A stretch of DNA of 50,596 nt, taken from sequence record OR767160; one strand, written 5' to 3'. The position numbers and the translations under genes were made by a program. Positions 6,952 to 45,476 of the stretch are shown here, piece after piece. The first letter of the stretch is position 1. Each line of letters opens with the position of its first letter. The stretch comes from Escherichia phage vB-EcoS-XT34. The notes under the pieces were generated by a model. That model worked only from the letters and a program-made list of their open reading frames with translations, did no database searches and had not been told where the DNA came from.

Positions 6952-7190
6952 TGTTTGGATTAACCGATCCGCAGATGAACGCAGTAAAGGCCAAGGCCAA
7001 GCAATTAAACGCAGCGTATGCCACCCTTAGCAAGAAAGATCGCAAAGATGATAAGATGGTTGCCTCAATTATTACCAAGCACCATGAGGCCGTAGCGACC
7101 ATTATATCGCGCTCTCGTTTTATTTGGATTGCTGGATACATAGAGGGTAGATGCGGAAGGCGGGATGATGGAGAATGTATTTATGATTGA
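6951..7190 (+). CDS. hypothetical protein
   Basis: 79-aa ORF; its 3-prime end overlaps the HNH gene start, so boundaries are uncertain. Confidence 0.3.
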   Translation: MFGLTDPQMNAVKAKAKQLNAAYATLSKKDRKDDKMVASIITKHHEAVATIISRSRFIWIAGYIEGRCGRRDDGECIYD

Positions 7191-7683
7191 TATAAATGAT
7201 TACCTTTCATATGATGAGTCAAGCGGCGACCTAATATGGGCATTTAAATTAAGCAGAAAGGTAGTTGTCGGATCGGTAGCTGGATGCAAGTGCAAAAGAG
7301 ATGGTTATATAAAGGTTAGGTTTGAAAATAGGCTTTACTTGGCTCATAGGATTATATGGGAGTCTGTAATGGGGAGAATACCAGAAGGGATGCAGATTGA
7401 TCATATAAACCACAATAGGTCAGATAACAGGGTGGAAAATTTAAGGCTTGTTACGCATATCGAAAACGGCATGAATCAATCAAGGAGCGTTAGAAACAAA
7501 AGCGGTGTAACTGGAGTGTCATGGCAGAGCAGGGATAAGAAGTGGAAGGCGGTAATTTCAAAGGATAGAAAGGCAATCAGTCTTGGGTATTTCAATAACT
7601 TCGATGATGCGGTGGCTGCTAGGCTTAGTGCTGAAATTGAATTTGGTTACCATGTAAACCATGGAAGAAAATTAAAGGTGTAA
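7165..7683 (+). CDS. HNH homing endonuclease with AP2-like DNA-binding domain (copy 1)
   Basis: HRIIWE..IDHINHNRSDNRVENLRLVT motif plus C-terminal AARLSAEIEFGYHVNHG; paralogous to five other copies. Confidence 0.75.
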   Translation: MMENVFMIDINDYLSYDESSGDLIWAFKLSRKVVVGSVAGCKCKRDGYIKVRFENRLYLAHRIIWESVMGRIPEGMQIDHINHNRSDNRVENLRLVTHIENGMNQSRSVRNKSGVTGVSWQSRDKKWKAVISKDRKAISLGYFNNFDDAVAARLSAEIEFGYHVNHGRKLKV

Positions 7684-7688
7684 AATCT

Positions 7689-7880
7689 ATGAGTAAGATC
7701 AAGAAGGGTGACGTGATCAAGTGTATCGGCGCGCGCGGTTATGAGTTCTTTACTGGCTGCGAGTACACAGTGGAAAAAGTTGATTCCCAGGGATTCGTTT
7801 ACGTATACAGTGACGAGGGGAACAAGGTAGCGATTGACTACCCTGTTTGCCCTACATATGGAACTTTTAAAAAAAGTTGA
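7689..7880 (+). CDS. hypothetical protein
   Basis: 63-aa ORF. Confidence 0.4.
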   Translation: MSKIKKGDVIKCIGARGYEFFTGCEYTVEKVDSQGFVYVYSDEGNKVAIDYPVCPTYGTFKKS

Positions 7881-7909
7881 TTGACAGCAATCTCACTGAC
7901 TGGTATCTT
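7881..7909 (+). promoter_or_regulatory. candidate sigma70 promoter (TTGACA-17-TATCTT)
   Basis: consensus -35 TTGACA at 7881-7886, 17-nt spacer, TGgTATCTT; followed by about 160 nt of hairpin-rich non-coding sequence. Confidence 0.45.
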
Positions 7910-8069
7910 TAATCTCGTAAACAGAAGAGGCCACCAAGTGGCAACGAGCGGTTCGTAAGCCGCAAATTGAAATAGCGCATCGCAAAAAGCAAAGTGTAAG
8001 TCGCAATACAATCGAGGCATTGTGAAAGCCTTCCGGACTCCGTAACCGGACCTAACAACGAGGTTTGAT

Positions 8070-8255
8070 ATGTTTGAGGTCAAGCTAACTATTTTGCTAA
8101 TGGGTCGCACATGCGCATCTTGTAAGCAAAACTTTGAAACAAAGGTTGAGGCCAGCAGCGCCGAAGAAGCCGTTTCAAAGGTGAAGAAAATGAGCGGAGT
8201 CGATACAACGACTCATAAATTTTTAGTTAATTATGTAAGGGGTATTTCATGCTGA
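8070..8255 (+). CDS. hypothetical protein
   Basis: 61-aa ORF with CASC motif. Confidence 0.35.
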   Translation: MFEVKLTILLMGRTCASCKQNFETKVEASSAEEAVSKVKKMSGVDTTTHKFLVNYVRGISC

Positions 8256-8470
8256 CGTTTATTTATGGTTTTATTTTCGCTTTCGTCCTGATCATTTCGT
8301 TATCTTGCTCATTGGTAGCCAAGCTAATTAAGCGAGGTCAGTTCGCTCAAGCTCGATACGATGAGAAGAAAAAGCAGTGGCGCGTATCCGGCAATTTTAT
8401 CTCTGTGTTCAACGAGATTAACGACATTCGATCGGGGCGGAAGCCTGGGGCCATCAAATACGTTGACTGA
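8249..8470 (+). CDS. hypothetical membrane-anchored protein
   Basis: 73-aa ORF with hydrophobic N-terminal segment. Confidence 0.4.
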   Translation: MLTFIYGFIFAFVLIISLSCSLVAKLIKRGQFAQARYDEKKKQWRVSGNFISVFNEINDIRSGRKPGAIKYVD

Positions 8471-8477
8471 TTCATTT

Positions 8478-8505
8478 AAGCATCCTTCGGGGTGCTTTTT
8501 TTATG
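8478..8505 (+). terminator. rho-independent terminator
   Basis: hairpin aagcatcc-ttcg-gggtgctt followed by a T tract. Confidence 0.6.
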
Positions 8506-8523
8506 CCTGCAATCTGGTATAAT
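8495..8523 (+). promoter_or_regulatory. candidate promoter with extended -10 (TGgTATAAT)
   Basis: TATAAT at 8518-8523 with TG at -15/-14, weak -35; immediately upstream of the packaging and head genes. Confidence 0.45.
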
Positions 8524-8552
8524 TCATTCCTATTCAACAAGGGGAAACAACT

Positions 8553-9071
8553 ATGAAAGACGAAAACTTCACCAGTCACGCAAACGAGAAGGTTCGAATC
8601 GGTAACTTCAAAGAGCTATACAATAAAAAGTATGGTGACATTGCCAACCTGAACCATCGTCACCCAATGACGCCTGAGACTGTATTCAACCTTGCGGTTA
8701 AATATTTCTCATGGGCCGAGGACCAGGCAATCAAGGCCATTGAAACGGCGAGCTTCCAGGGCTTTGTCACTGAGAACCTAGTGCACAAGCCGCGAGTGTT
8801 CACGCTCAACGGCTTCCAGCTTTATTGCGGCGTTACCTCCGGTGCGATCCAAAGCTGGCGCGCGTCGCCTGGATTCTCTGAGGTAATGGAGTTCATAGAC
8901 TCAGTAATTATTGAACAGAAATATCAGTTAGCTGCGTCCAACCTTATCAACGCCGGATTCGTAGGCAAAGACATTGGTATCAACAAGGCGGCAGAAGTTA
9001 ACGTGAGCAATGTTGTGAATGACAAGCAAACCATAGAGGATGCCGTGAAAAGCGTACTGGATAAGATTTGA
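8553..9071 (+). CDS. terminase small subunit (candidate)
   Basis: 172-aa ORF directly upstream of the large terminase gene; assignment by position and size only. Confidence 0.45.
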   Translation: MKDENFTSHANEKVRIGNFKELYNKKYGDIANLNHRHPMTPETVFNLAVKYFSWAEDQAIKAIETASFQGFVTENLVHKPRVFTLNGFQLYCGVTSGAIQSWRASPGFSEVMEFIDSVIIEQKYQLAASNLINAGFVGKDIGINKAAEVNVSNVVNDKQTIEDAVKSVLDKI

Positions 9072-9130: not shown

Positions 9131-10720
9131 ATGTCTAACAAGATATTGATTTGGGAAGATCTGACACCAAAGGAAAAGGCGGTAATAAAGGTGATGAGCG
9201 AAAGGTCGTTTAGTGACTTTATGCGCATATGGTTCGCGCTGATACAGGCTCAGAAGTTTAGATCTAACTGGCACTTCAACTACCTTTGCTGGAAGGTTGA
9301 GCAGATAATCAACGGTGAGATACAAAACATCATATTCAACATCACTCCAGGCTCCGGTAAGACTGAGATATTCTCTATACACATGCCAGTTTATTGCATG
9401 TTCAGAAGCGAGAAGATAAGGAACCTGAACCTATCGTTCTCTGATAGTTTGGTGAAGGATAACGGGATCAGGACTCGTGAAATTATAGGATCGGATGAGT
9501 TTCAGGAGCTGTGGCCATGCAAACTAGCCAAGGCGTCTGGTGGTGATATTACCGCTCTAAACCAAAAGGAAAAGGCATGGCTAACTCTAACCTCTCGCGC
9601 GATCGGTGGTCAGGTAACTGGTAAGCGTGGCGGTTATATGGATGATGGCTTCACCGGAATGCTGACGCTTGATGACCCTGAGAAGCCGAAAGACCTATAC
9701 TCAGCAGTAAAGAGAAAGGCTGGTCATACGCTGTTAAAGAACACCGTTCGATCGCGAAGAATGAATGACAAGACACCATGCGTTGTTGTCCAGCAGCGGC
9801 TACACGTAAACGATGCGACTTGGTTCCTGATGAATGGCGGTATGGGTGGGATGAAGTTTGAACAGGTAATCATTCCGGCGCTGGTAACTGAGGAATATAG
9901 AGACACGCTTCCTGACTGGTTGAAAGAGGAATTTGACAGAGACGTGCTATCGTCCCCATCGGTAATGATTGACGGTGTTGAGCACTTCTCTTTCTGGCCT
10001 GCGAAGGAAAGCGCAGAAAGCCTACTGGCGTTGCGCGAAGCTGACCTGTACACATTTGAGTCTCAGTATCAGCAGAAGCCAATCGCGCTTGGCGGTAACG
10101 CGTTTAAGTCGGACTGGTTCCAGTATTACGGCGACGGCGAAAAAGCCAACATGCCAAAACCGGATCGCTTCGAATACCTTTTTACCACTGCGGATACTGC
10201 GCAGAAGGCCGAGGAAATTCACGACTACAGCGTCTTTGTTTTGTGGGGCAAGTATAAGGATCGCGTATATTTCATCGACGGCATTCGCGGTAAGTGGGAA
10301 GCGCCGGAACTTGAAAAGATGGCCCTTAAGTTTTATGGCAACTGCTTCAAATGGGCGAAGGATAACAAGACTTCACTGCGCAAGGTTTACATTGAAGACA
10401 AGGCGAGCGGTACTGGCCTGATCCAGTCAATCAACAAGAAACTACCGATTGACATTACGCCAGTTCAGCGAAATACGGATAAGGTAACTCGCGCAATGGA
10501 CGCGGCGCCAATCATGAAAGCGGGGCGCTGTGTTTTTCCCGAGTCTCACGAAATGTTAAGTGACATGGAGGTTGAGTTGGTTTCATTCACGTTTGATGAT
10601 TCATCTCCTCACGATGACATTTGCGATAACGTCTTTGATGCTGTAAACTTTGAGATGAACATGTTGGATGATCCAGTATCTAGAATGAAGCGTTTAGCCG
10701 GATTAAGTAAGGGGATGTAA
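9131..10720 (+). CDS. terL: terminase large subunit
   Basis: 529 aa, N-terminal ATPase with Walker A TPGSGKT, C-terminal acidic nuclease-like region, followed by portal gene. Confidence 0.85.
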   Translation: MSNKILIWEDLTPKEKAVIKVMSERSFSDFMRIWFALIQAQKFRSNWHFNYLCWKVEQIINGEIQNIIFNITPGSGKTEIFSIHMPVYCMFRSEKIRNLNLSFSDSLVKDNGIRTREIIGSDEFQELWPCKLAKASGGDITALNQKEKAWLTLTSRAIGGQVTGKRGGYMDDGFTGMLTLDDPEKPKDLYSAVKRKAGHTLLKNTVRSRRMNDKTPCVVVQQRLHVNDATWFLMNGGMGGMKFEQVIIPALVTEEYRDTLPDWLKEEFDRDVLSSPSVMIDGVEHFSFWPAKESAESLLALREADLYTFESQYQQKPIALGGNAFKSDWFQYYGDGEKANMPKPDRFEYLFTTADTAQKAEEIHDYSVFVLWGKYKDRVYFIDGIRGKWEAPELEKMALKFYGNCFKWAKDNKTSLRKVYIEDKASGTGLIQSINKKLPIDITPVQRNTDKVTRAMDAAPIMKAGRCVFPESHEMLSDMEVELVSFTFDDSSPHDDICDNVFDAVNFEMNMLDDPVSRMKRLAGLSKGM

Positions 10721-10794
10721 CGCAGGGCTCAAGAAGTGAAATATATGACATTGCCAAAGGTTATCTAACATATGACGGAACTCATGTTAGATGG

Positions 10795-11244
10795 ATGATT
10801 AAGGTTAAGAAAAGTAAATTCTACCCAGGTGATATAGCTGGAACCATTGATGCTGATGGTTATGTGAGGATAACGATAGGTGGAGTGTCTATTCTTGCTC
10901 ATAGGTTTGCGTGGGAATTCGATAATGGAGACATACCAGAGGGAATGCAGATAGACCACAAAAATCACGTAAGGAACGATAATAGGAGGGAGAATCTAAG
11001 GGTTGTTACCCATAAGGATAACGGTAGGAACACGAAAAGATCTGTCAGAAATAGGAGTGGATGTGTAGGTGTTTATTGGTATGAGTCAAGGTCTAAGTGG
11101 TGGGCTTTCATTGGAAACTCAGGAAAGGGAGAGAGGAAATCACTAGGCTACTTCTCTGATTGGTTTGACGCGGTTTGCGCCAGGAAATCAGCCGAGCTCA
11201 GGCTTGGATACCATGAAAACCATGGTAAGATAGACATCAAATAA
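10795..11244 (+). CDS. HNH homing endonuclease with AP2-like domain (copy 2)
   Basis: HRFAWEF..IDHKNHVRNDNRRENLRVVT and WFDAVCARKSAELRLGYHENHG; inserted between terminase and portal genes. Confidence 0.75.
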   Translation: MIKVKKSKFYPGDIAGTIDADGYVRITIGGVSILAHRFAWEFDNGDIPEGMQIDHKNHVRNDNRRENLRVVTHKDNGRNTKRSVRNRSGCVGVYWYESRSKWWAFIGNSGKGERKSLGYFSDWFDAVCARKSAELRLGYHENHGKIDIK

Positions 11245-11279: not shown

Positions 11280-11295
11280 ATTGGGAGAAAAACAG

Positions 11296-12558
11296 ATGAG
11301 TAAAAAAAGCGTTAAGACCGACTCTTACAACAAGACGTTTAAGGGTGAAGGTACGGCAGGCGGCGCGCTTGCATCGCTGTATGATCAGATGTACGTGACG
11401 CAGTTTTACATTGATGATCCTATGGCTAAAAAAATTGTCGATGTGATTCCAGAAGAGATGGTCTTCCCTGGATTCGGCCTGGACGGGGTGAAGGATGAGA
11501 AGGCGTTCAAATCTTTGTGGGATGGCATGAAGCTTAACAAGCAGATTGTCGAGGCGTTCTCATGGGAGCGGCTTTATGGTGGTTCCGCTATCGTTGCCGT
11601 CGTCCGTGACAACCGACTCCTGACATCACCAATCAAGGAAGGTGCGCAGCTTGAATCAATCCGAGTGTACGAGAAAGAGCAGATCCGCATCAAGGACCGC
11701 GAGAAGAACGCACGCAACCCTCGCTATGGTATGCCGAAGATTTACACCATTAACCCTGGCGGCAGCGTACCGGAATACGACGTACACTACACGCGAATCT
11801 ATGTTAACGGCGGCGAGCGCGTACCTAACTCACTTCGCGAGCAGAATAACGATTGGGGCGCATCGGTGCTGAGTAAGGGCTTGATTGACGCCATCCTTGA
11901 CTACAACTACTGTGAAGAGCTGGCTACTCAGCTATTGCGCCGTAAGCAGCAAGGCGTATGGAAAGCTAAAGGTCTGGCGGATTTGTGCGACGATGACGAA
12001 GGGCGTTACGCGGCTCGACTGCGATTAGCTCAGGTTGATGACAATAGCGGCGTAGGCCGGACGATTGGCATTGATGCCACCGACGAAGAATACGACGTCC
12101 TTAACTCAGACATTGGCGGCGTTGATGCTTTCCTGGATAAGAAGATGGACCGCATCGTCAACTACTCGCAGATTCATGAGATAATCCTCAAGAATAAGAA
12201 CGTAGGCGGCGTGTCAGCGAGCCAGAACACAGCGCTTGAGACTTTCTACAAGATGATTGACCGCAAGCGTAACGAGTATTACAGGCCGCTTCTGGAATGG
12301 CTGGTTCCTATGATTATCCAGGAAGAGGAATGGTCAGTCCGCTTTGAGCCGTTATCAATGCCAAGCGAGAAAGAGCAGTCCGAGACGTTGAAGAATAACG
12401 TTGAGTCGCTTTCGAAGCTGTTGGCTGAGCAGGTCATTGACCGTGACGAAGCGCGTGATACACTTGAGGCAATCGCAGACTTTATCAAGATTCAAGGCCC
12501 AGCGCCGGAGATTGAAGAGATCGAGCCAACTAACCCGCAGGTGAACAACGAGGAATAA
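11296..12558 (+). CDS. portal protein
   Basis: about 420 aa, between terminase and head morphogenesis genes; start set at the ATG at 11296 (track uses an upstream TTG). Confidence 0.75.
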   Translation: MSKKSVKTDSYNKTFKGEGTAGGALASLYDQMYVTQFYIDDPMAKKIVDVIPEEMVFPGFGLDGVKDEKAFKSLWDGMKLNKQIVEAFSWERLYGGSAIVAVVRDNRLLTSPIKEGAQLESIRVYEKEQIRIKDREKNARNPRYGMPKIYTINPGGSVPEYDVHYTRIYVNGGERVPNSLREQNNDWGASVLSKGLIDAILDYNYCEELATQLLRRKQQGVWKAKGLADLCDDDEGRYAARLRLAQVDDNSGVGRTIGIDATDEEYDVLNSDIGGVDAFLDKKMDRIVNYSQIHEIILKNKNVGGVSASQNTALETFYKMIDRKRNEYYRPLLEWLVPMIIQEEEWSVRFEPLSMPSEKEQSETLKNNVESLSKLLAEQVIDRDEARDTLEAIADFIKIQGPAPEIEEIEPTNPQVNNEE

Positions 12559-22796: not shown

Positions 22797-23144
22797 ATGG
22801 CCCTAGACGTGTTCAAGTGGTGCGTACAGGTTCAGGATGGTGGCGGTGTAATGACCGTCACTAATAATGACAGGCAGGTGCAGTTTGGCAATGGATTCCG
22901 CCAGGTTGCATCGTCTGGCTATAACACTGAGCGACGAGAGTACGCAATCAGTTACGTTGGCAAGGACTGGAAAGAAGTGCGCGAGTTTTTGCGATCGCAT
23001 AGACTGAAAGCCTTTGCCTTTACCCCACCGGAGGACAAGATCGGCGTCTTCCTATTGAAGCCGGACACGCTGAATACTCAGCCAATCGGTCGTGGTCTTC
23101 TTGTTGTAAAATGCACCATTGTAGAAGCCTTCACAGCGGTGTAG
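22797..23144 (+). CDS. minor tail protein (lambda M-like)
   Basis: 115-aa ORF immediately after the tape measure gene; a duplicate start at 22570 lies in the pre-gap copy. Confidence 0.55.
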   Translation: MALDVFKWCVQVQDGGGVMTVTNNDRQVQFGNGFRQVASSGYNTERREYAISYVGKDWKEVREFLRSHRLKAFAFTPPEDKIGVFLLKPDTLNTQPIGRGLLVVKCTIVEAFTAV

Positions 23145-23148
23145 AATA

Positions 23149-23173
23149 AAGCCTCCTAACGGGGGCTTTTTTA
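23149..23173 (+). terminator. rho-independent terminator
   Basis: aagcctcc-taac-gggggctt followed by TTTTTT. Confidence 0.55.
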
Positions 23174-23187
23174 TTGGAGGTAATCCC

Positions 23188-23934
23188 ATGACACCTAAGT
23201 TTGAAAACGTATTGCAGGGGCTATTCCCTGGTGAGATCATGACGCTAATTGACGTTGACGGAACTAAGTTCGGCGCGCAGGTCTACAGATTCCACAACGA
23301 GAACATCCAGTTTACGCCTGAAGAGATTCTCGCAGCGACACAACCAGGCGGGAGCCTTAAGCCAAAAACAATCACCTTTCAGGGAAATGAATATGGCGCT
23401 CGTCCTTTCGGCATATCAGGCATTGACCTAAACGGTAACGGAAAGGCAGGGAAGCCACAGTTAACCCTATCGAACCTTGACAGTCGCGTATCGGCCCTTA
23501 TTCGTTCCTACAACGGCATGATGCAGGCCAAGGTGACTATCTGGATAACCTCACGAGAAATGCTCGGCAGCGACGGCAACGTTTCACCTGGTGATTTCAG
23601 GAAATACGTTTACTACGTTGAGCGACCGAACTTTGTTGATCAGAACGTTGCGCGATTTGACCTTACCTCACCATACGACATGGACGGAATCATGATTCCA
23701 CCGCGAGTTACTCAGAGTGTTTGCTTTTGGGCGCAACGTGGATGGTATCGAAGCGGACGCGGTTGCGGTTACAACGGAAGCAGGATGTTTGACAAAGACA
23801 ACAATCCAGTAACTGATCCATCTCAGGACGTTTGCGCTGGAACTGTAACGGCCTGCAAGTTGAGATTCGGGGCTGAAAACGAATTGGACTTTGGCGCCTG
23901 TGCTACCGCATCACTACAGAGAAAAAATCAGTAA
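23188..23934 (+). CDS. minor tail protein (lambda L-like)
   Basis: 248 aa with a C-terminal cluster of four Cys residues, as in lambda gpL. Confidence 0.65.
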   Translation: MTPKFENVLQGLFPGEIMTLIDVDGTKFGAQVYRFHNENIQFTPEEILAATQPGGSLKPKTITFQGNEYGARPFGISGIDLNGNGKAGKPQLTLSNLDSRVSALIRSYNGMMQAKVTIWITSREMLGSDGNVSPGDFRKYVYYVERPNFVDQNVARFDLTSPYDMDGIMIPPRVTQSVCFWAQRGWYRSGRGCGYNGSRMFDKDNNPVTDPSQDVCAGTVTACKLRFGAENELDFGACATASLQRKNQ

Positions 23935-23993
23935 TTGACATTACATCGAAATCATGCCAGCATTAAATCAAATGGATACTGTAGGATACCAAA

Positions 23994-24479
23994 ATGATTA
24001 ACTGGCATGATTACTTTAAGTACGATAACGGGGTTCTGATTAACATAAAGAGCAGGAATGGGGCTAAGTATATGCAGCAAGCGGGGAGGAAAAATAAATC
24101 ATCAGGCTACATTGAGGTGATGGTTAATTATAAGCGGTATCAGGCGCATAGGACTGTGTGGGAAATGAATCATGGTAAAATTCCAGAAGGAATGGAAATA
24201 GATCACATAAATGGGATTCGTGATGACAACAGAATTGATAACCTGAGGCTTGTCACAAGCAGAACAAACGACACAAACAGGGCTAAAAGCAAGGCCAACA
24301 CAAGCGGTGTCGTTGGTGTTTGCTGGGATAAAAGAAAAGGTTTATGGTTGGTTAGGATTTACGACAACAAGAAACCAGTTTTCGTTGGTTACTTTCGTGA
24401 ATGGTTTGATGCTGTATGCGCGAGAAAGTCATCGGAAAGGACTTATAATTATCATGAGAATCACGGGAGAGCGAAATGA
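23994..24479 (+). CDS. HNH homing endonuclease with AP2-like domain (copy 3)
   Basis: HRTVWEM..IDHINGIRDDNRIDNLRLVT and WFDAVCARKSSERTYNYHENHG; inserted between the L-like and K-like tail genes. Confidence 0.75.
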   Translation: MINWHDYFKYDNGVLINIKSRNGAKYMQQAGRKNKSSGYIEVMVNYKRYQAHRTVWEMNHGKIPEGMEIDHINGIRDDNRIDNLRLVTSRTNDTNRAKSKANTSGVVGVCWDKRKGLWLVRIYDNKKPVFVGYFREWFDAVCARKSSERTYNYHENHGRAK

Positions 24480-37179: not shown

Positions 37180-39174
37180 ATGTTGCCTATCGAGAAGCTA
37201 GTTGCAAACTTCGATAAAGAAAGAATTAAACAGATTCAGAAGGATTACCAGTTTGGAGAGATAACCCCTTACGAATTCCAGTGTGTTACATTTGATGCAA
37301 TCGGAAAGGCCATTGGGAAGTATGAAAGCCCATTCATAGCAGACCTGTCGGTTTCTGCTGGTAAAACTATCATTCTCGCCATGATCGGTAAGAGAATGGA
37401 ACAGTTAGGGCTTCCTTATATGGTGCTATCTCGCCAGTCTGAGATTGTGAGCCAGGACAGCGAAGAGCTTCGCAATTTTGGCATTCGTAATAGCGTCTAT
37501 TGCGCTGGCCTTAACGTTAAATCAGTTTATTACCCAACCATAGTTGCTAGCGAAGGAACTGCGGCTAACGGCTTATTTAAGGGGCTTGGTGACTATGTTC
37601 CTGCCGTTATAGCTATAGATGAGTGCCATATGGTCGATCACATGGATATCGTTGAAGCCGAGGAGAACGAAGAAACATTTGAGCAAATGAGCACAAAGAA
37701 AGGCGAGATGGTTTTTAAGGATGGCGTAAACACAGGATTGCTTGGCACTGGTCGTGCGCAGTACACGCTAATCATTACTGAAATGAAACGACGTTGTCGT
37801 GAGAAGTATGGTCGCGAGCTTCGTATCTTTGGGCTAACTGGCAGCCCGTATCGCAACAATGATCACATAGTGGTTAGCAATCCAAATATCCGTGGATTCT
37901 GGCGCAAAACAGTGATCCAGGTCCCAACCAATTACCTTGTTGATTTGGGATTCGTTGTTCCAACTGTTTACGGAGAGGTTGGTGATTTGGGTTACGACCT
38001 TGCGGAGTTTGCTCCGGATGGCAGCGATGGTGTGAAAGACTTCAGCAAGAAAGAGATGGATGCAATGGCTGCAAAGATTCACGAAAACCAATCAATGACT
38101 CAAAAGATTATGGGTTTTCTTGTAAAAATTCTAGAGACTCGTAACGCCGCATTGGTCACCTGCGCCGGAAAACTCCATTGTGATGAGGCCGCTGCGGCAT
38201 TGCCGGATGGATACCCTTACGCCATTATCACCGATTCTACCGGAGAGAGGAAGCGCAGAGAGATTCTTGCAGATTGCCAGACTGGAAAGTACAAGATTAT
38301 CTTTCAGATTGGATGTCTAACCACGGGCGTAAACCAACCGCTGTGGGATACTAGCGTCATACTACGCAAGATTGGCAGTCTAACCTTAATGATTCAGCTT
38401 CTTGGTCGTGGCATGCGAAAACTAAAAAAGGCGCACATAGATGCTGGGTTCAAGAAGGAGGACCACTTGGTATTAGACTTTGCCGGAGCGCTTGATGACA
38501 TGGCAGAGCTTTACTTTGACCCAATAATTGAGGAGATTCAGGCTGAGAAGTTTAAATCCTCAAGAAAAGGTGGTGATGAGGCTCGCCAGTGTCCGAAATG
38601 TGGATATGAGAATTCGCCATTTGCTAGACGCTGTAGCAATAAGATTAATGGCGTTAGATGCGATCACTTTTTCCAGTTCACAACATGTGATGATATTACC
38701 GACCAACAAACAAAGGCGGTAATCAAGAAAGGTTGTGGAACTAAAAATGACATAGCAGCAAAAGTTTGTCGCGAATGCGGGGAAATGCTTAAAGACCCAA
38801 ACGCTAACCTGACTGGAAAGATGTATCGTCGCGGAGACTATTTGCGTGTTTATGACTTCCAGGTTGGATTGAGCAAAAATCAAACTGGCATTGTAGTTAA
38901 GTACAATATCATGGCCCACAACGGAGAAAGATTTAACGCTTGGGAGTTCTTTAATCCAGAATCTGACCATCGAGTTTGTAGTGTGCTATGGAAAAACTTT
39001 TGCCTTTCTCATATTGAGAATCGCACAGAGGCAGCACGAATTGGCAAACTTCGTAACGCAAAAATGATTATGATGAACGCAGATAAATTCCGAGCTCCTG
39101 TGCAGGTGACGCATCGTCGAAATGCAAAAGGTAAGGATATAATTGCCGTGAAAAATTTTGGAGAGTTAAAATGA
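37180..39174 (+). CDS. superfamily 2 DNA helicase
   Basis: 664 aa, Walker A SAGKT, DECH box (IAIDECHMV), C-terminal Cys cluster. Confidence 0.75.
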   Translation: MLPIEKLVANFDKERIKQIQKDYQFGEITPYEFQCVTFDAIGKAIGKYESPFIADLSVSAGKTIILAMIGKRMEQLGLPYMVLSRQSEIVSQDSEELRNFGIRNSVYCAGLNVKSVYYPTIVASEGTAANGLFKGLGDYVPAVIAIDECHMVDHMDIVEAEENEETFEQMSTKKGEMVFKDGVNTGLLGTGRAQYTLIITEMKRRCREKYGRELRIFGLTGSPYRNNDHIVVSNPNIRGFWRKTVIQVPTNYLVDLGFVVPTVYGEVGDLGYDLAEFAPDGSDGVKDFSKKEMDAMAAKIHENQSMTQKIMGFLVKILETRNAALVTCAGKLHCDEAAAALPDGYPYAIITDSTGERKRREILADCQTGKYKIIFQIGCLTTGVNQPLWDTSVILRKIGSLTLMIQLLGRGMRKLKKAHIDAGFKKEDHLVLDFAGALDDMAELYFDPIIEEIQAEKFKSSRKGGDEARQCPKCGYENSPFARRCSNKINGVRCDHFFQFTTCDDITDQQTKAVIKKGCGTKNDIAAKVCRECGEMLKDPNANLTGKMYRRGDYLRVYDFQVGLSKNQTGIVVKYNIMAHNGERFNAWEFFNPESDHRVCSVLWKNFCLSHIENRTEAARIGKLRNAKMIMMNADKFRAPVQVTHRRNAKGKDIIAVKNFGELK

Positions 39175-39653
39175 ATTGGAATGATGTTTTCGAGTACGTA
39201 GAAGGAAAGATTTTCTGGAAGGATAGTGGGAAAGGTAGGAAGTCTGGTGCTGAATTTGGTTGCATATGCAATACGTGGGGTTATGTTATTGGCACCCTTA
39301 GAGGAAGGACTGTTAGGGCCAATCGTTTAATATGGGAGATGCATAATGGGCCAATACCAAACGGAATGCAAATTGACCACATCAATCACATTAGGCATGA
39401 TAATAGAATTGAGAACTTGAGGCTTGTTAGTAATCAGGAAAACAGCAAAAACAACTCAATGCGAAAGAATAATACTTCTGGAGTTACAGGTGTTTGCTGG
39501 AATAAACAAAAAGGAAAGTGGATGGCTAAAATAAAAGTTGATTACAAAACCATAAATCTTGGTTTGTATTCAGACATTGAAAAGGCCGTGGAAGCAAGAA
39601 AGCAAGCTGAGGAATTATACGGTTTTCATGAAAATCACGGGGTTAATTTATGA
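39171..39653 (+). CDS. HNH homing endonuclease with AP2-like domain (copy 4)
   Basis: NRLIWEM..IDHINHIRHDNRIENLRLVS and EARKQAEELYGFHENHG. Confidence 0.75.
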   Translation: MNWNDVFEYVEGKIFWKDSGKGRKSGAEFGCICNTWGYVIGTLRGRTVRANRLIWEMHNGPIPNGMQIDHINHIRHDNRIENLRLVSNQENSKNNSMRKNNTSGVTGVCWNKQKGKWMAKIKVDYKTINLGLYSDIEKAVEARKQAEELYGFHENHGVNL

Positions 39654-40069
39654 AAATTACAGATAAAGTTGATTACATTGAGTTTTACCCGGGCCCGGTT
39701 AAGTCATGCCATAAAGAGGATGACGAACAAATCTTTTGCTCTGACTGGGTTAAGTACAACTACCCAGAGATGGTATTTTTCCACACCGTGAATGAGGGTA
39801 AGAAAACCATTGGACAAGCAAGAAAAGACCAGGCAAAGGGTTTGCTCAAGGGTGTGTCAGACTGTATTTTTTTGATACCTGAATCCGTGAGAGGGAGGCA
39901 TCCATTTGGCGCAATAGAGCTAAAGAGGGCTGGAAAAACACAAGCCAGTCCAGTCAGTGCCGAACAGAAGTCCTTCCTTAAAAGCGTAAGAGAATCAGGA
40001 GGTTTTGCGGCTGTGGCATACGGACGTGAAGGTTTTCTTGCGGCATTTAAAGAGATGATTTCAAAATAG
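39650..40069 (+). CDS. VRR-NUC domain nuclease
   Basis: 139 aa, PD-(D/E)XK-like core with D..ELK motif (DCIFLIP..GAIELKRAG). Confidence 0.6.
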   Translation: MKITDKVDYIEFYPGPVKSCHKEDDEQIFCSDWVKYNYPEMVFFHTVNEGKKTIGQARKDQAKGLLKGVSDCIFLIPESVRGRHPFGAIELKRAGKTQASPVSAEQKSFLKSVRESGGFAAVAYGREGFLAAFKEMISK

Positions 40070-40109
40070 CACGAATTGCTAAAGACGAATCTCAAGGATG
40101 AGATACTAT
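40067..40109 (+). promoter_or_regulatory. box element (TAGCACGAATTGCTAAA) plus -10-like TACTAT
   Basis: box overlapping the VRR-NUC stop, 22 nt to TACTAT, CA-rich leader. Confidence 0.45.
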
Positions 40110-40139
40110 TACCACATCAAAACGAAATGAGTAAAAGAT

Positions 40140-40643
40140 ATGAAATGGAGAAATCGAATACAATATAAAGATGGTTCACTTTACTGGCTTGAGGCGAAAG
40201 ATAAAAGCAAATCATTCAATCATCGACTTTCTGGAAAGAAAATAGGAACGGTTATGAAGGATGGTTACATGAGATTCAGGTTTAATGATAAAGCATACTC
40301 ATGCAGCAGGGTGACGTGGGAGTACTTTAATGGAGAAATTCCTATCGGAATGGAGATTGATCATATAAACCATATAAGAGATGATAACAGAATTGAAAAT
40401 TTAAGATTGGTATCAAGATCTGATAATCAAAAAAATCTAAGTATATCAAAAAACAACAAATCAGGAGTAACTGGCGTCACATACCATAAACCTTCTGGTT
40501 TATGGTCCGCCAGAATAAACTCTGGAGGAAGAAGGTTTGAGCTTGGCTACTACAAAACCATAGAAGAAGCAAGGTTGGCAAGAATTGATGCTCAAAATGA
40601 ATTTGGTTTTCATGATAATCATGGAAAGAAAATAAAAAATTAA
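40140..40643 (+). CDS. HNH homing endonuclease with AP2-like domain (copy 5)
   Basis: SRVTWEY..IDHINHIRDDNRIENLRLVS and EARLARIDAQNEFGFHDNHG. Confidence 0.75.
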   Translation: MKWRNRIQYKDGSLYWLEAKDKSKSFNHRLSGKKIGTVMKDGYMRFRFNDKAYSCSRVTWEYFNGEIPIGMEIDHINHIRDDNRIENLRLVSRSDNQKNLSISKNNKSGVTGVTYHKPSGLWSARINSGGRRFELGYYKTIEEARLARIDAQNEFGFHDNHGKKIKN

Positions 40644-40658
40644 GCGAGGTTAAATAAG

Positions 40659-41387
40659 ATGATCGACTCAAACGACAAAGATACTCATGACGCATTCGTT
40701 AGCTTCGAGCAGATCGAGTGTGAAAACTTTGTTACCAATGCGCTTGTTCCTGGTAACGGTCATTATCAGTCGGTTAAGCCGGACACCTTCTATCAGGTAA
40801 CTGGGAAACGATACGCCGGAAGCAAGACGCCTGACGCAGTTCGTGACCTATGGGCCACTGACAGAGAAGTGATCTCATGGATGGAGTCGCGTTATGGGAA
40901 GTATGACATTGACGCCGCCGCCAGCGCTAACAATGCTATTTGCGAAAAGTTCTACAGCGAACAAGTGAACTGCCTCAAAATCTGGTGGGGTAGCAATAAG
41001 CACATCTGGATGAATCCTCCGTACTCACATCCAGATCCTTTCGTGAAGAAGGCGATTGAGCAGATGGAGCACGGGAACCAGATTGACATGCTCTTGCCTG
41101 GCGATAACTCGACGGCGTGGTTCGCTGAGGCACGACGCAATGCGGCTGAGATCATCTGGATTGAGGCAGAGATAACAGAAATTGACCAGCAGGAATACTG
41201 CCGAACCGGAAGGCTGGCATTCATATCAGGCCTGACCGGAAAGCCTGTAGATGGGAATAATAAGGGATCTGTCATCTTCATTATGAGAAAGCTGAAAGAA
41301 GGTGAGGCGCAGAAAACGACATACGTCTCAGTTAGTGATATTTGCCCTGGCGTTAGCCGTAAAAAACCACGTAAGCGGAGTGTTTAA
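40659..41387 (+). CDS. dam: DNA N6-adenine methyltransferase (phage Dam-type)
   Basis: 242 aa with catalytic NPPY motif (WMNPPYS). Confidence 0.7.
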   Translation: MIDSNDKDTHDAFVSFEQIECENFVTNALVPGNGHYQSVKPDTFYQVTGKRYAGSKTPDAVRDLWATDREVISWMESRYGKYDIDAAASANNAICEKFYSEQVNCLKIWWGSNKHIWMNPPYSHPDPFVKKAIEQMEHGNQIDMLLPGDNSTAWFAEARRNAAEIIWIEAEITEIDQQEYCRTGRLAFISGLTGKPVDGNNKGSVIFIMRKLKEGEAQKTTYVSVSDICPGVSRKKPRKRSV

Positions 41388-41388
41388 G

Positions 41389-41619
41389 ATGAATAAGAAA
41401 GTTAATTTAAATGAAGATGGTCAGTTCCTTTTATTCCGTGCACTTGTTTGCCAAAATCTCTCAGATCTTGGGTTTAAGGGTGACGCCTGGGTATTCTCTG
41501 AATCACTTGATATGTCATTTGATTGCATAAAGGATGAGGAATATCGCTACTGGAAAGACTTAATAAAAAATGATGCCTCTGACTATAAGCGAGATTGCCC
41601 AGAAGATTTCGCAGAATAG
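41389..41619 (+). CDS. hypothetical protein
   Basis: 76 aa from the internal ATG with RBS; stop TAG begins a box element. Confidence 0.4.
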   Translation: MNKKVNLNEDGQFLLFRALVCQNLSDLGFKGDAWVFSESLDMSFDCIKDEEYRYWKDLIKNDASDYKRDCPEDFAE

Positions 41620-41659: not shown

Positions 41660-41689
41660 TCTTTCATACCAACGAGACGAGGAATCATC

Positions 41690-42403: not shown

Positions 42404-42557
42404 TGCGCTGCTTAATTCCAGTATTATTACCGCCGCTAATTGGTTTTATTATCATCTACCTACTAACACGATAAGGATTTACAAAAATGGCTATTCAGAA
42501 GATTAGTGACGAACAATTCATTGCTGAGCGCGAAGCTGGTAAAACACTCCGCCAGAT

Positions 42558-42656
42558 NNNNNNNNNNNNNNNNNNNNNNNNNNNNNNNNNNNNNNNNNNN
42601 NNNNNNNNNNNNNNNNNNNNNNNNNNNNNNNNNNNNNNNNNNNNNNNNNNNNNNNN
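42558..42656. other. run of 99 N flanked by an exact 128-bp direct duplication (assembly join)
   Basis: 42430-42557 is identical to 42657-42784. Confidence 0.9.
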
Positions 42657-42713
42657 CCGCCGCTAATTGGTTTTATTATCATCTACCTACTAACACGATA
42701 AGGATTTACAAAA

Positions 42714-43856
42714 ATGGCTATTCAGAAGATTAGTGACGAACAATTCATTGCTGAGCGCGAAGCTGGTAAAACACTCCGCCAGATTGCCCAGGAATACGGG
42801 ATGAACATTCGAACTGTTGAGCAGCGCTCAAGCCGCCTGGCAAAGCGCGGTGAGTTCCACGGGAATAAACACGTAAGCGTACACGTGCCAGAGGGCTTTC
42901 AGGTTAAAGGCACGTCAACCATGATTCGCGCTGACGGTTCCGAGGTCGTGCGCTGGGTTAAGACCGATCAGGACAAGGAGAAATTAGCCGCCATGATGGA
43001 TGCTGCTATTGAAGCATTCTGTGACGAACTCCCGCGCGCAGCTCCTCAGCCTATTCTTGGCGAGCCTCACTATGATGAGAATCTCCTGGCCCTGTATCCA
43101 GTTTTCGATCTCCACATCGGAGCAATGGCCCACAAGCATGAATGCGGCGAGAATTACAGCACCGACATCTCTGAGAAAGTTCTCAAGAACTTCTTTGATT
43201 ACTCGGTTGGTGTATCTCCTAAAGCAAAGAAAGCCGTATTGCTAATCGGCGGTGACTTCCTTCACTCAGACGGCCTGGACGCTGTAACGCCTGCAAGCGG
43301 TCACGTACTGGATCAGGATAGTCGATACGCCAAGCTAGTTCACGTTGCAATCCGTTCCGTACGCCGCGCGGTGGCGCTAATGCTGGATAAGCACGAAGAG
43401 GTCGAAATCCAGATCATTGAAGGTAACCATGACCAGGCTGGCATGATTTGGTTGCGTGCAGCAATGGCGGCATACTTTGAAGATGAGGCGCGCGTAACGG
43501 TTGATACGTCTCCTATGATTCTTCACCGTACAAAGTGGGGCAAAACATTGCTTGGATACACTCATGGTCACACCATGAAGAAAGCTGATACTCGACTGGC
43601 GGCAATGGCGACTGACTTCCGCGAAGAGTTCGGTACGAGCAAGTATATTTACACGCATAGTGGCCATTGGCACCATCAGACGATCACGGAAGGAACTTTG
43701 GGGATTGATGAGGTTCACGGTCAGCTTGGCGCGAAAGATGCATATGCGGCGCGCGGCGGTTGGCGCTCATATCGCCAGGCGGCGGTAATTGTCTACTCCA
43801 AGGAGTTCGGCGAAGTCGGTCGCTTCGTTTACCGTCCTGAAATGAGCGACATCTGA
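42714..43856 (+). CDS. HTH-containing calcineurin-like metallophosphoesterase
   Basis: N-terminal HTH-like LRQIAQEYGMNIRTVEQR; phosphoesterase motifs DLHIG, GGDFLHSD, GNHDQ; a duplicate start at 42487 lies in the pre-gap copy. Confidence 0.55.
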   Translation: MAIQKISDEQFIAEREAGKTLRQIAQEYGMNIRTVEQRSSRLAKRGEFHGNKHVSVHVPEGFQVKGTSTMIRADGSEVVRWVKTDQDKEKLAAMMDAAIEAFCDELPRAAPQPILGEPHYDENLLALYPVFDLHIGAMAHKHECGENYSTDISEKVLKNFFDYSVGVSPKAKKAVLLIGGDFLHSDGLDAVTPASGHVLDQDSRYAKLVHVAIRSVRRAVALMLDKHEEVEIQIIEGNHDQAGMIWLRAAMAAYFEDEARVTVDTSPMILHRTKWGKTLLGYTHGHTMKKADTRLAAMATDFREEFGTSKYIYTHSGHWHHQTITEGTLGIDEVHGQLGAKDAYAARGGWRSYRQAAVIVYSKEFGEVGRFVYRPEMSDI

Positions 43857-43900
43857 TAGCACGAATTGCCTAACACTATAGCGCCGGAAGGCGCTATATT
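43857..43900 (+). promoter_or_regulatory. box element variant (TAGCACGAATTGCCTAA) plus -10-like TATATT
   Basis: TGA-TAG double stop; spacing about 23 nt. Confidence 0.4.
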
Positions 43901-43927
43901 CATATCTCAATCACAGAGGATTCAATC

Positions 43928-44101
43928 ATGGTTAAATTATTTTGCGTTAAGAACACATCTAAAACCCTGCCTTTCACTGTTAACAATCCGTACATCGCCG
44001 AGTACCAGGGAGACGGGAGCTACAAGATTTACGGCGACGATATGACGTGGATTTTTGCGCCAATTGATGGTGCTCTGGTTGAATTTATTATCGCTGACTA
44101 G
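43928..44101 (+). CDS. small hypothetical protein (57 aa)
   Basis: hand-translated ORF with AGAGGA RBS, followed by a terminator; not in the ORF track. Confidence 0.3.
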   Translation: MVKLFCVKNTSKTLPFTVNNPYIAEYQGDGSYKIYGDDMTWIFAPIDGALVEFIIAD

Positions 44102-44127
44102 CTCAGCAAAAACATAACGTTACGAAC

Positions 44128-44153
44128 GGGGAGCCTTTAGGCCCCTTTTTTTG
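44128..44153 (+). terminator. rho-independent terminator
   Basis: gggagcc-ttta-ggcccc followed by TTTTTTTT. Confidence 0.55.
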
Positions 44154-44220
44154 TGCTTCTTTTTAATACCGTGCTAATGTATTATGTTTTTTACTAACTG
44201 AGATATTGACAATCACATAA

Positions 44221-44448
44221 ATGGTGGATCACATGAGGGAAGTAATTAACGCTGCTACAGCATCAACTGGCGGAGCTGCAGTGACTGGAGCAGCGACTGG
44301 TCAAATGACCATAGCAATAATCAGCCTTATCGCTCTGATCATTTTTGGAGCTTGGGGGGCTTACTGGAAGTTTAAGGATAGCCAGGCCATTAGGCGCGCT
44401 CTTGAATCAGGAGACTTAAAAACAGCAATCAAGATAAGGAGTAAGTAA
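44221..44448 (+). CDS. holin (candidate pinholin)
   Basis: 75 aa, Gly/Ala-rich hydrophobic segments and charged C-terminus, directly upstream of the endolysin gene. Confidence 0.55.
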   Translation: MVDHMREVINAATASTGGAAVTGAATGQMTIAIISLIALIIFGAWGAYWKFKDSQAIRRALESGDLKTAIKIRSK

Positions 44449-44949
44449 ATGAAGCAGAAGCTTGTAATTAGTGCGGCGACGGCTGCAGCAATATACATTG
44501 CAGCACCGATCATTGAGCTTGTAGAAGGCGTGGAGAACAAGCCATACATGGACATTGCTGGAGTGCCTACGGTCTGCGCTGGAGTTACTGGCTCCGATGT
44601 GATATGGGGCAAGAGCTACAGTAACAGGGAGTGCCGGAACTTGCTGGAGAAGCACATTCAGATTCATGGCAAGCATGTGCAGAATGCAGTCACCTACCCT
44701 ATATCCCCAAAGACAAGGGCGGCGCTAATCAGTTTTAGCTACAACGTTGGCGGATACGCCATGAGGAAGTCTACATCTGTAAGGCTAATTAACCAGGGTA
44801 AGGTTGAGCAGGGTTGTAAGGCTCTAGGTATGTGGACAAAAGCAAGAGTAAATGGGAGGCTTGTTACAGTAAAGGGTTTAGTAAACCGAAGGAATGAAGA
44901 GATTAAGCTATGCATTGAGGGTGAGATGGAAATGAAAAGGGGCAATTAA
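44449..44949 (+). CDS. endolysin, lysozyme-like with N-terminal signal-anchor-release (SAR)-type domain
   Basis: 166 aa; weakly hydrophobic Ala/Gly-rich N-terminus followed by E..D..T catalytic spacing (IELVEGVENKPYMDIAGVPTVC). Confidence 0.7.
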   Translation: MKQKLVISAATAAAIYIAAPIIELVEGVENKPYMDIAGVPTVCAGVTGSDVIWGKSYSNRECRNLLEKHIQIHGKHVQNAVTYPISPKTRAALISFSYNVGGYAMRKSTSVRLINQGKVEQGCKALGMWTKARVNGRLVTVKGLVNRRNEEIKLCIEGEMEMKRGN

Positions 44950-45476
44950 GCCCCGTGATTTTCGTGAAAGCCTAGCTCCATCTCTGCGGCTTTTCTAGCT
45001 AAGACTGCATCATCGAATGAGTCTCCGTAGTAAAGCCGCTTATTCTTGCCATTAATTTTTATCTGAGAGAACCATTTACCCCTTGCTGAGTCCCAGCACA
45101 CACCAACGACTCCGGATGTATTTAAAGAAGACATTGGCATGTTCATTTCCTGATCAGACCTTGATGCCAGTCTTAGGTTTTCAATTCTATTATCATCCTT
45201 AATGTGGTTTATATGATCGATCTCTATACCATCAGGTATCTGGCCTTTGTGCATTTCCCATATAATCCTATGCACCTTCCTGTACCTGTTGTTAAATCTA
45301 ACCAATAGGTATCCATGTTTATCTGGAGTTCCAACCATTTTTCCGGCATTTCTTGAGTTGTACTGATTGCTCATGTCATCACGACGCTTCCTCCATAAAT
45401 TATTTCCGTCATAATGAAAGTATTTTGACCAGTTCATGTATACTATCCTCTCTAGTTTCATTTCATCAACAATCAT
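44946..45476 (-). CDS. HNH homing endonuclease with AP2-like domain (copy 6)
   Basis: HRIIWEM..IDHINHIKDDNRIENLRLAS and FDDAVLARKAAEMELGFHENHG; on the opposite strand, between endolysin and spanin genes. Confidence 0.75.
   Translation of the reverse strand: MIVDEMKLERIVYMNWSKYFHYDGNNLWRKRRDDMSNQYNSRNAGKMVGTPDKHGYLLVRFNNRYRKVHRIIWEMHKGQIPDGIEIDHINHIKDDNRIENLRLASRSDQEMNMPMSSLNTSGVVGVCWDSARGKWFSQIKINGKNKRLYYGDSFDDAVLARKAAEMELGFHENHGA

Follow-up and report, generated by a model that had tools for sequence, protein, structure and literature searches.

The genome of the T1-like coliphage Escherichia phage vB-EcoS-XT34 (Drexlerviridae, Nouzillyvirus), which makes up the entire 50,596-bp window analysed here, carries six genes that are most probably free-standing homing-endonuclease genes of the HNH(HNN)-AP2 class, each from a lineage with its own insertion site (probability of about 0.8). 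Sequence comparisons showed the family and fold of the products, a presence/absence polymorphism among relatives, the fidelity of lineages to sites, sharply bounded and nearly identical cassettes, and purifying selection. We found no literature on phage XT34.

Six HNH-AP2 genes in the XT34 genome

The six ORFs of the initial annotation, at 7165, 10795, 23994, 39171, 40140 and 44946 (the last on the minus strand), are all present with correct coordinates and strands. The neighbours named for them were also recovered, namely TerL and portal, tail genes L and K, VRR-NUC flanked on both sides, and the lysis cassette.

7165..7683, plus strand: HNH-AP2 copy 1 (HNH_3 E 3e-22), between a small early ORF (6951-7190) and an ORF at 7689-7880
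10795..11244, plus strand: HNH-AP2 copy 2 (HNH_3 E 8e-19), between TerL (9131-10720) and portal (11281-12558)
23994..24479, plus strand: HNH-AP2 copy 3 (HNH_3 E 5e-22), between tail genes L (23188-23934) and K (24476-25201)
39171..39653, plus strand: HNH-AP2 copy 4 (HNH_3 E 1e-20), between a helicase gene (37180-39174) and VRR-NUC (39650-40069)
40140..40643, plus strand: HNH-AP2 copy 5, between VRR-NUC (39650-40069) and Dam (40659-41387)
44946..45476, minus strand: HNH-AP2 copy 6 (HNH_3 E 6e-21), antisense between endolysin (44449-44949) and Rz-like spanin (45494-45883)

The six ORFs are intact and free of internal stops and frameshifts. The proposal that they are intron-less, free-standing genes at gene boundaries is supported by the ORF map, the junction alignments and the Rfam search, which detected no intron in the genome; ARAGORN and Rfam likewise detected no tRNA or intron that could host the genes. 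An HMM built from the six copies and run against all six-frame stop-to-stop ORFs of at least 40 aa retrieved exactly these six at E<=10, with no extra or degenerate copies or fragments elsewhere in the genome. Pfam searches (29 ORFs scanned overall) found no other nuclease families among ten mid-sized ORFs.

All six products match Pfam HNH_3 (PF13392) with 67-78 bits (gathering score 24.8). Pfam AP2 (PF00847) is matched by five of them, above the gathering score of 33.3 only in copy 5 (35.5 bits) and below it, at 18-25 bits, in copies 1, 3, 4 and 6; copy 2 has no Pfam AP2 match, yet its C-terminal segment aligns with those of the other copies. The alignment of the six proteins contains 35 invariant columns, among them those of the D-H, DNR and NLR core and of the A..AR...H.NHG motif near the C terminus, and bears out the common core and the C-terminal segment proposed earlier, with minor deviations in copy 2 (IDHKN, ENLRV) and copy 3 (IDNLRL). 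The N termini do differ, as had been noted, and for copy 2 the difference is a truncation of 25 residues. The start of copy 1 is more likely at 7183 (MIDINDY...) than at 7165, as judged from the p111 annotation and the point where the homologues align, and for copy 6 a start at 45437 (MNWSKYF...) is possible, matching the call for its 163-aa homologue P0095.

A PDB profile search matched I-HmuI (PDB 1U3E, E 8.5e-7), an intron-encoded HNH nicking homing endonuclease of Bacillus phage SPO1, with the D-H, N, N core aligned. The catalytic Asp-His, the structural Asn and the metal-ligand Asn (I-HmuI D74, H75, N83 and N96) are kept in copies 1-5. Copy 6 keeps the D, H and N83 equivalents and has Gln in place of the Asn aligned with N96, as do its closest homologues P0093 and P0094. 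The core has a beta-beta-alpha-metal fold that resembles a solved HNH_3/I-HmuI-like member, and the AP2 part is a three-stranded sheet on one helix that is superposable on solved AP2 domains. I-HmuI differs from the XT34 proteins in being intron-encoded and in having a C-terminal DNA-binding part that is not AP2, whereas the XT34 genes are free-standing and AP2-ended.

Lineages and sites in Nouzillyvirus

The nine Nouzillyvirus relatives compared have one to four copies each vs. six in XT34. Empty alleles are found among them at five of the six sites (1, 2, 3, 4 and 6), where the junctions coincide exactly with gene boundaries, and an alternative cassette occupies the sixth. The uniform occupation of these positions that the initial annotation named as evidence against its reading was thus not found. 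The 30 copies in the ten genomes fall into 18 lineages using about 15 distinct sites across the genus, and each lineage that recurs is confined to one site. For copies 3, 5 and 6, the nearest metagenomic homologues also lie at identical junctions in the same orientation.

The six XT34 copies share just 36-46% identity with each other, and each is closer to same-site copies in other phages. The description of the genes as paralogous thus fails if within-genome duplication is meant; recent intragenomic duplication is ruled out by this low identity, and the six copies are six lineages acquired independently. Copies 3-6 stand apart from the known phage HNH(HNN)-AP2 family in that none of their full-length homologues in 50,697 isolate-phage records exceeds about 58% identity.

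Structures of the insertion sites

Alignment of occupied and empty alleles located the following features at the junctions.

7113..7182, plus strand: diverged patch at the 3' end of the ORF upstream of copy 1 (occupied vs. empty allele)
10720..10722, plus strand: lost start codon of copy 2, ACG here and ATG in p111 and CJ19, where it overlaps the TerL stop
23935..23993, plus strand: 59-nt leader brought in with copy 3 (L/K junction alignment)
40067..40091, plus strand: left anchor TAGCACGAATTGCTAAAGACGAATC, common to HNH-bearing, lipoprotein-bearing and both VRR-NUC alleles
40645..40661, plus strand: right anchor CGAGGTTAAATAAGATG with the Dam RBS and start, common to both cassette types
44913..44945, plus strand: recoded endolysin 3' end (C-terminal tail IEGEMEMKRGN vs. 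LSGLQR in empty alleles)
44939..44954, no strand assigned: hairpin GGGGC-AATTAA-GCCCC, terminator-like on both strands
45477..45544, plus strand: new spanin RBS and recoded signal-peptide codons (MFLQKMLLCSVILLSGC vs. MFKWIAALVMCMALSGC)

In p111 and PH1062 this site holds the copy 1 lineage as well (99% aa identity), and it is empty in TH30, TH27, TH21, CJ19, P818 and GaoY1. Identity between HNH+ and HNH- alleles falls sharply in 7113..7182, with 94-98% on both sides, which makes this patch a candidate for both the putative copy 1 target region and a self-immunity patch.

The ORF of copy 2 begins at 10795 because the ancestral ATG reads ACG, leaving 149 aa vs. 174 aa in p111. Its lineage also occurs in p111 and P818 (98-100% aa) and in CJ19 (89-90%; dN/dS = 0.04 vs. 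CJ19), and the TerL 3' end together with copy 2 lies within a block of ~100% identity to p111 and P818. Packaging accessory HNH proteins that act with terminase are known in HK97-like phages (HK97 gp74 type), and copy 2 lies directly downstream of TerL, as such a protein might. However, the TerL/portal site is empty in four of the nine close relatives (TH30, TH27, TH21 and GaoY1), where TerL and portal are adjacent, and is filled by another HNH lineage in PH1062 and ESCO41, so that copy 2 is not a terminase partner conserved and required in all members of the group. The start codon is also gone in XT34, and the same HNH_3-AP2 family occurs in five copies away from the terminase. A packaging role for copy 2 is rejected because relatives without it are viable, and we give it almost no credence.

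The site of copy 3 is unoccupied in each of the nine relatives, and L and K overlap there. In XT34 the copy 3 stop and the K start overlap (ATGA), the upstream part of the cassette consists of the 59-nt leader and the recoded final ~55 nt of L (about 23880-23934), and an 8-nt repeat, ATGATTAA, at 23994 and 24476 marks the two ends of the cassette. Four metagenome contigs (L013-L016) carry a 96% identical homologue between L and K. The dN/dS of copy 3 is 0.12, and its dS is 0.15 vs. 0.34 and 0.55 for the flanking L and K.

Copy 4 overlaps the helicase and VRR-NUC genes by 4 nt each, and the final ~70 nt of the helicase gene beside it differ from the empty allele. The site is occupied by another lineage in ESCO41 (~44% aa) and is empty in P818. 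An exact-sequence look-up returned no record of copy 4. Its nearest isolate-phage homologue (57%, Webervirus MezzoGao) stands beside a different helicase and thus at a different site, indicating that site fidelity holds only within close lineages; from this homologue no cross-genus site fidelity is demonstrable for copy 4.

Copy 5 stands in the place of a 273-bp lipoprotein gene that is present in all nine relatives, and the shared anchors on both sides indicate that it is a replacement of this gene rather than an insertion into an empty site. Four contigs carry the copy 5 cassette with 99-100% DNA identity; on these, the left flank is a non-homologous VRR-NUC allele and the right flank is 92-98% identical.

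The endolysin/spanin site of copy 6 is empty in p111, PH1062, P818, ESCO41 and GaoY1, where the two genes overlap. In XT34 this overlap is replaced by the recoded endolysin end and the 45477..45544 segment, and the convergent stops of endolysin and copy 6 overlap (TTAA) within the loop of the hairpin. Contigs L017-L019 carry a homologue of 69% identity at this site, oriented as in XT34, and the dN/dS of copy 6 is 0.09. A consensus scan for promoters of its own gave four promoter-like sites vs. 4.3 expected in shuffled sequence.

Homing, passive exchange or decay

The fidelity of lineages to sites, the nearly identical cassettes in diverged backgrounds and the low dN/dS (0.04-0.12) fit active or recently active homing. 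The earlier claim of active homing need not hold for every copy; judged from the lost start codon of copy 2 and the Asn-to-Gln change at the metal-ligand position of copy 6, these two are the most doubtful. Cleavage, with its specificity and its form as a nick or a double-strand break, and the present activity of each copy are putative. Each protein has an I-HmuI-like N-terminal DNA-contact region and a beta-beta-alpha-metal core, fused to a C-terminal AP2 domain. In the proposed mechanism, a carrier phage would co-infect a cell with a relative that does not have the copy, and the enzyme would nick or cut the DNA of the relative near the empty junction. Recombinational repair on the carrier template would then copy the nuclease gene together with a short flanking stretch. 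The carrier DNA would be spared through recoded sequence beside the insertion, usually in the final 20-100 nt of the upstream gene; as indirect evidence, HNH+ alleles have recoded patches of 20-100 nt next to the inserted genes.

Ordinary homologous recombination of the cassettes, without nuclease drive, could likewise produce the presence/absence pattern. The genes would then be passive, moron-like accessory genes moved by general recombination, with no self-promotion by the nuclease. Mosaicism is genome-wide, and the initial annotation's expectation of recombination hot spots at these loci is weakly supported. The junctions at 40140 and 44946 lie at exceptional identity breaks (99th and 95th percentile), and the other four do not stand out from the mosaic seen across the genome; pooled over the six junctions, the enrichment of identity breakpoints is marginal (P about 0.04, a single test with window sizes chosen arbitrarily). 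Copies 3 (about 95% identity) and 6 (about 72%) diverge from their homologues roughly as much as the flanks do, compatible with vertical descent within sub-lineages. The element is closer between genomes than its surroundings for copies 5 and 3, and the signal is weaker for copy 6. Copy 5 resembles any swapped module, being one of two cassettes that alternate between conserved anchors; purifying selection shows a function without telling which, and DNA-binding domains of homing endonucleases have been co-opted as regulators (PMC10448857). However, the 18 lineages keep a single site each, the recoded patches lie directly beside the insertions, and the solved relative I-HmuI is a site-specific homing enzyme. 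Passive exchange also overlaps with homing, in that exclusion of a competitor is intron-less homing seen from the recipient's side. We consider passive exchange unlikely. Passive genes of this kind would be retained for some other benefit, such as harm to co-infecting phages or host DNA, or DNA binding or regulation through AP2.

Homing is also preferred over the reading that some or all copies are decaying relics of earlier invasions, late in the homing cycle, whose products have lost DNA cleavage. Such decay would account for the ACG in place of the ancestral ATG in copy 2, whose N-terminal beta-hairpin would be missing, and for the Gln at the Asn96-equivalent position in the copy 6 lineage, and a degeneration series of HNN-AP2 genes has been reported in Xanthomonas phages (PMC2248197). 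However, the intact ORFs, the low dN/dS, which extends to the copy 6 lineage, the absence of fragments in the HMM search and the spread of copy 5 in essentially unchanged form make it improbable. It fails for the whole set and is plausible for copy 2 alone.

Comparison with known systems

HNH-AP2 genes in several copies have been known since 2004-2007 from T1-like, T5, T4-like and Xanthomonas phages. The XT34 set clearly exemplifies a familiar type of selfish phage gene and does not point to novel biology. The family of HNH-AP2 homing endonucleases goes back to Magnani et al. (2004, Plant Cell 16:2265, as cited in PMC10448857). Multiple HNN-AP2 copies are known in T1, Rtp, T5 and Xanthomonas phages (PMC2248197), RB16 has six HNH-AP2 genes (PMC2993671), and multi-copy sets also occur in RB16/RB43 and in Xanthomonas Xp10/OP1/Xop411 (PMC2248197, PMC2993671, PMC10448857). 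Since the 44.5 kb of Xop411 include eight free-standing HNH genes, the density in XT34 is not unprecedented. The XT34 genes share with this phage family the HNH_3 core (D-H...N...N) without Cys zinc boxes followed by a C-terminal AP2, the free-standing, multi-copy arrangement scattered between essential genes, and the variable locations among related phages with signs of degeneration. Insertion was concluded to be sequence-independent in the Xanthomonas study (PMC2248197), whereas the Nouzillyvirus lineages keep one site each.

Similarly, the free-standing T4 seg/mob genes, which spread by intron-less homing, and the nuclease-bounded 'HEG islands' of ICP1-like phages have conserved or essential genes as neighbours, vary in presence among relatives, co-transfer flanking sequence and are associated with terminase, structural and replication genes (PMC10448857). 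Some of them lie at exchange boundaries, as do copies 5 and 6 in XT34; in contrast to those systems, the breakpoint association is strong at just two of the six XT34 sites. The nuclease families also differ, being GIY-YIG and HNH-zinc-finger in T4 and T5orf172 and a divergent 'IPA-HNH' in ICP1 (PMC10448857).

Possible consequences for the phage

We have little expectation that copies 5 and 6 have functional consequences beyond selfish spread. The lipoprotein displaced by copy 5 gives only a weak lipobox signal in Pfam and belongs to a PHROGs family of unknown function (phrog_7420), and its assignment as a superinfection-exclusion protein is unsupported by these searches. If the lipoprotein did limit superinfection, its loss through copy 5 would raise co-infection and favour transmission of the nuclease. 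Copy 6, an antisense gene that comes with a two-way terminator-like hairpin, uncouples endolysin and spanin, which otherwise overlap, and could in this way alter lysis timing.

The HNH loci mark places in the genome that tolerate insertion and explain much of the gene-content difference among therapeutic-candidate coliphages that are otherwise 85-95% identical; they should be masked in Drexlerviridae phylogenies and species definition. With its 18 lineages, about 15 sites and matched occupied and empty alleles, the genus provides a panel of natural nuclease/target pairs that could serve in working out how the HNH-AP2 architecture reads DNA.

HNH-AP2 genes and their domains

The six HNH-AP2 genes noticed in the initial annotation were confirmed by ORFs, Pfam matches, alignment and gene neighbours. 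The ORFs are present at 7165, 10795, 23994, 39171, 40140 and 44946, and their neighbours are as described: TerL and portal, tail genes L and K, the helicase, VRR-NUC and Dam genes, and the endolysin and Rz-like spanin genes. A start at 7183 is likelier than 7165 for copy 1, and 45437 is a possible alternative start for copy 6. The reported core and C-terminal motif are shared by all copies: 35 columns of the alignment are invariant, among them those of the D-H/DNR/NLR core and of A..AR...H.NHG. Pfam HNH_3 is matched far above threshold by 6/6 copies and AP2 by 5/6, with copy 5 alone exceeding the AP2 gathering score. Run against the window in six-frame translation, a profile built from the six copies gave six matches and no more. 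The same profile matched I-HmuI (1U3E; E 8.5e-7), whose catalytic core aligns with it position by position, and gave weak matches to AP2 domains. The AlphaFold model of copy 5, with a 59-sequence alignment as input, has a mean pLDDT of 89. On the basis of these profile matches and the copy 5 model, the label HNH-AP2 is sound for the six copies; in the source annotation, copy 3 is an 'HNH endonuclease motif protein' and copy 5 a 'hypothetical protein'.

As a family, HNH-AP2 homing endonucleases are well established (Magnani et al. 2004, cited by PMC10448857 and PMC2248197). Multiple HNN-AP2 genes occur in T1, Rtp, T5, Xanthomonas phages and RB16, which like XT34 has six copies, and Xop411 carries eight free-standing HNH genes within 44.5 kb (PMC2248197, PMC2993671). 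Such genes are documented beside those for terminase, structural proteins and replication, as well as at boundaries of exchange (PMC10448857), and 'infestation' of coliphage genomes by homing endonucleases is a routine remark (PMC8594841). The multi-copy phenomenon in XT34 is ordinary. Searches with tblastn of 50,697 isolate-phage records, a collection that does not hold the XT34 genome itself, located the family in about 3,400-3,600 records at about 5,100-5,500 places; for four XT34 lineages, full-length homologues in these records do not exceed about 58% identity.

Occupancy of the junctions in related genomes

Escherichia phage vB-EcoS-XT34, whose complete 50,596-bp genome forms the window, belongs to the T1-like siphophages of the Drexlerviridae, genus Nouzillyvirus (megablast). 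Its closest relatives over the left genome half are vB_EcoM-p111 (94% identity at 89% coverage), PH1062, TH30, CJ19, P818 and ESCO41. XT34 and nine Nouzillyvirus genomes formed the set for the mobility comparison, in which site occupancy was scored by flank-to-flank BLAST and junction alignments. The nine relatives have 1-4 HNH-AP2 copies per genome compared with six in XT34, the highest number among the ten genomes.

HNH-AP2 genes of XT34 and content of the corresponding sites in nine relatives
7165 (+), copy 1, site 1: same lineage in p111 and PH1062; unrelated ~400 bp in ESCO41; empty in six genomes
10795 (+), copy 2, site 2 (TerL/portal): same lineage in p111, P818 and CJ19; other HNH lineage in PH1062 and ESCO41; empty in TH30, TH27, TH21 and GaoY1
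23994 (+), copy 3, site 3 (L/K): same lineage in 0/9; no other content; empty in 9/9
39171 (+), copy 4, site 4 (helicase/VRR-NUC): same lineage in none; other HNH lineage in ESCO41; empty in P818; flanks non-homologous and unscorable in the other genomes
40140 (+), copy 5, site 5 (VRR-NUC/Dam): same lineage in none; 273-bp lipoprotein gene; empty in none
44946 (-), copy 6, site 6 (endolysin/spanin): same lineage in none; no other content; empty in five genomes; flanks non-homologous and unscorable in the rest

The junction alignments showed that every insertion lies exactly on a gene boundary, frequently with ATGA-type overlaps, and that the neighbouring 20-100 nt are recoded in HNH-bearing alleles. 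In XT34 the recoded stretches are at 7113-7182, about 10703-10720, about 23880-23934, about 39100-39170, 44913-44945 and 45477-45544. At site 6, copy 6 breaks the natural endolysin/spanin overlap and brings a new endolysin tail, spanin RBS and signal peptide. Judged from these comparisons, the homing interpretation of the initial annotation appears largely right. Empty alleles at sites 1, 2, 3, 4 and 6 agree with homing insertions at gene junctions; however, copy 5 represents a gene replacement. It lies within 40092-40644, where all nine relatives have a gene for a predicted lipoprotein (90 aa, MKKSIIALLAVVAMAGC..., phrog_7420; ESCO41 41151-41423). The lipoprotein gene was aligned at this place in P818 and ESCO41 and is annotated there in the other annotated relatives. 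Passive cassette shuffling, in which the nuclease would act in competition or regulation, overlaps with homing and may account for the same patterns.

Lineages, spread and selection

Clustering at 70% identity grouped the 30 copies in the ten genomes into 18 lineages. Each recurrent lineage is confined to one site, and the genus uses about 15 sites. The six XT34 copies had been described as paralogous, but their pairwise identity of only 36-46% argues against recent duplication and for independent acquisitions. Recent horizontal spread is most clearly indicated by the sequence pattern of copy 5. Four metagenome contigs encode an identical protein between VRR-NUC and Dam, and the cassette DNA is 99-100% identical throughout. 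Identity in the right flank is 92-98%. To the left, three contigs have a VRR-NUC/helicase allele with no homology to that of XT34. The HNH cassette and the lipoprotein cassette occur as alternatives between one set of conserved anchors. For copy 2, XT34 has ~100% identity to p111 and P818 in a block that covers the TerL 3' end and the gene. Copy 3 has a 96% homologue between L and K on four metagenome contigs, and on three contigs endolysin and spanin are separated by an antisense 69% homologue of copy 6. The divergence of both from these homologues is about that of the flanks, which may reflect vertical descent within sub-lineages.

The dN/dS values are 0.04 for copy 2 (against CJ19), 0.12 for copy 3 and 0.09 for copy 6, indicating that the HNH-AP2 proteins are under purifying selection. 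The dS of copy 3 (0.15) is below those of the flanking L (0.34) and K (0.55). With intact ORFs and such low dN/dS, the copies as a whole set are not relics, although copy 2 possibly is one. Its ORF starts only at 10795 because the ATG start of p111 and CJ19 reads ACG at 10720-10722 in XT34, with the loss of ~25 N-terminal residues; the ACG stems either from early decay or from a sequencing error. A role of copy 2 as a packaging HNH is contradicted by the viability of relatives that lack it. Copy 6 has Gln, kept in its nearest homologues, at the position of the I-HmuI metal ligand Asn96. Copies 2 and 6 are possibly impaired.

Recombination at the junctions

The proposal that these loci are recombination hot spots was examined in the nine relatives with the HNH ORFs masked and 300-nt windows on each side. 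The identity shift reached the 99th percentile at the 40140 junction and the 95th at the 44946 junction, but the other four were within the background. Enrichment of breakpoints over the six junctions gave a pooled P of about 0.04, and the proposal is weakly supported.

Additional observations

The 8-nt repeat ATGATTAA occurs at both ends of the copy 3 insertion (23994, copy 3 start; 24476, K start) and could be chance or an insertion trace. A hairpin at 44939-44954 (GGGGC-AATTAA-GCCCC) encloses the overlapping convergent stops of endolysin and copy 6. With terminator-like scores on both strands and a position upstream of the spanin gene, it might affect spanin expression. A 168-aa GTG ORF antisense to the spanin gene (45478-45984, -) is probably spurious, since the gene that it overlaps matches a PHROG strongly.

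Within the genus, two helicase/VRR-NUC alleles (window 37180-40069) are non-homologous in DNA: a ~664-aa helicase with a 139-aa VRR-NUC in XT34, P818, ESCO41 and metagenome contig L023, and a ~700-aa helicase with a 142-aa VRR-NUC in p111, PH1062, CJ19, GaoY1 and contigs L020-L022. Copy 5 was found beside either allele. Sharp mosaic blocks at 41401-41600 and 42801-43800 are unconnected with any XT34 HNH gene. The block at 41401 is 96% identical to p111 and ~66% to all other relatives; that at 42801-43800 is ~90% identical to PH1062, TH30, TH21 and CJ19 and ~68% to the remainder, and its left edge has an HNH gene in P818 and TH30 (window position ~42463-42710).

In p111, a divergent weak family member annotated 'hypothetical protein' (20154-20666, 96 bits) lies between terS and terL; its identity to the other copies does not exceed 38%, and it has no counterpart in XT34. 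An ESCO41 ORF annotated 'endonuclease VII' (22886-23395, between tail genes M and L), likewise absent from XT34, gave no match to the HNH-AP2 profile and therefore probably belongs to a different family of mobile nucleases. ESCO41 also carries a tRNA-Arg (7289-7366) just downstream of its site 1 equivalent, which is missing in XT34, whose genome has no tRNA at all.
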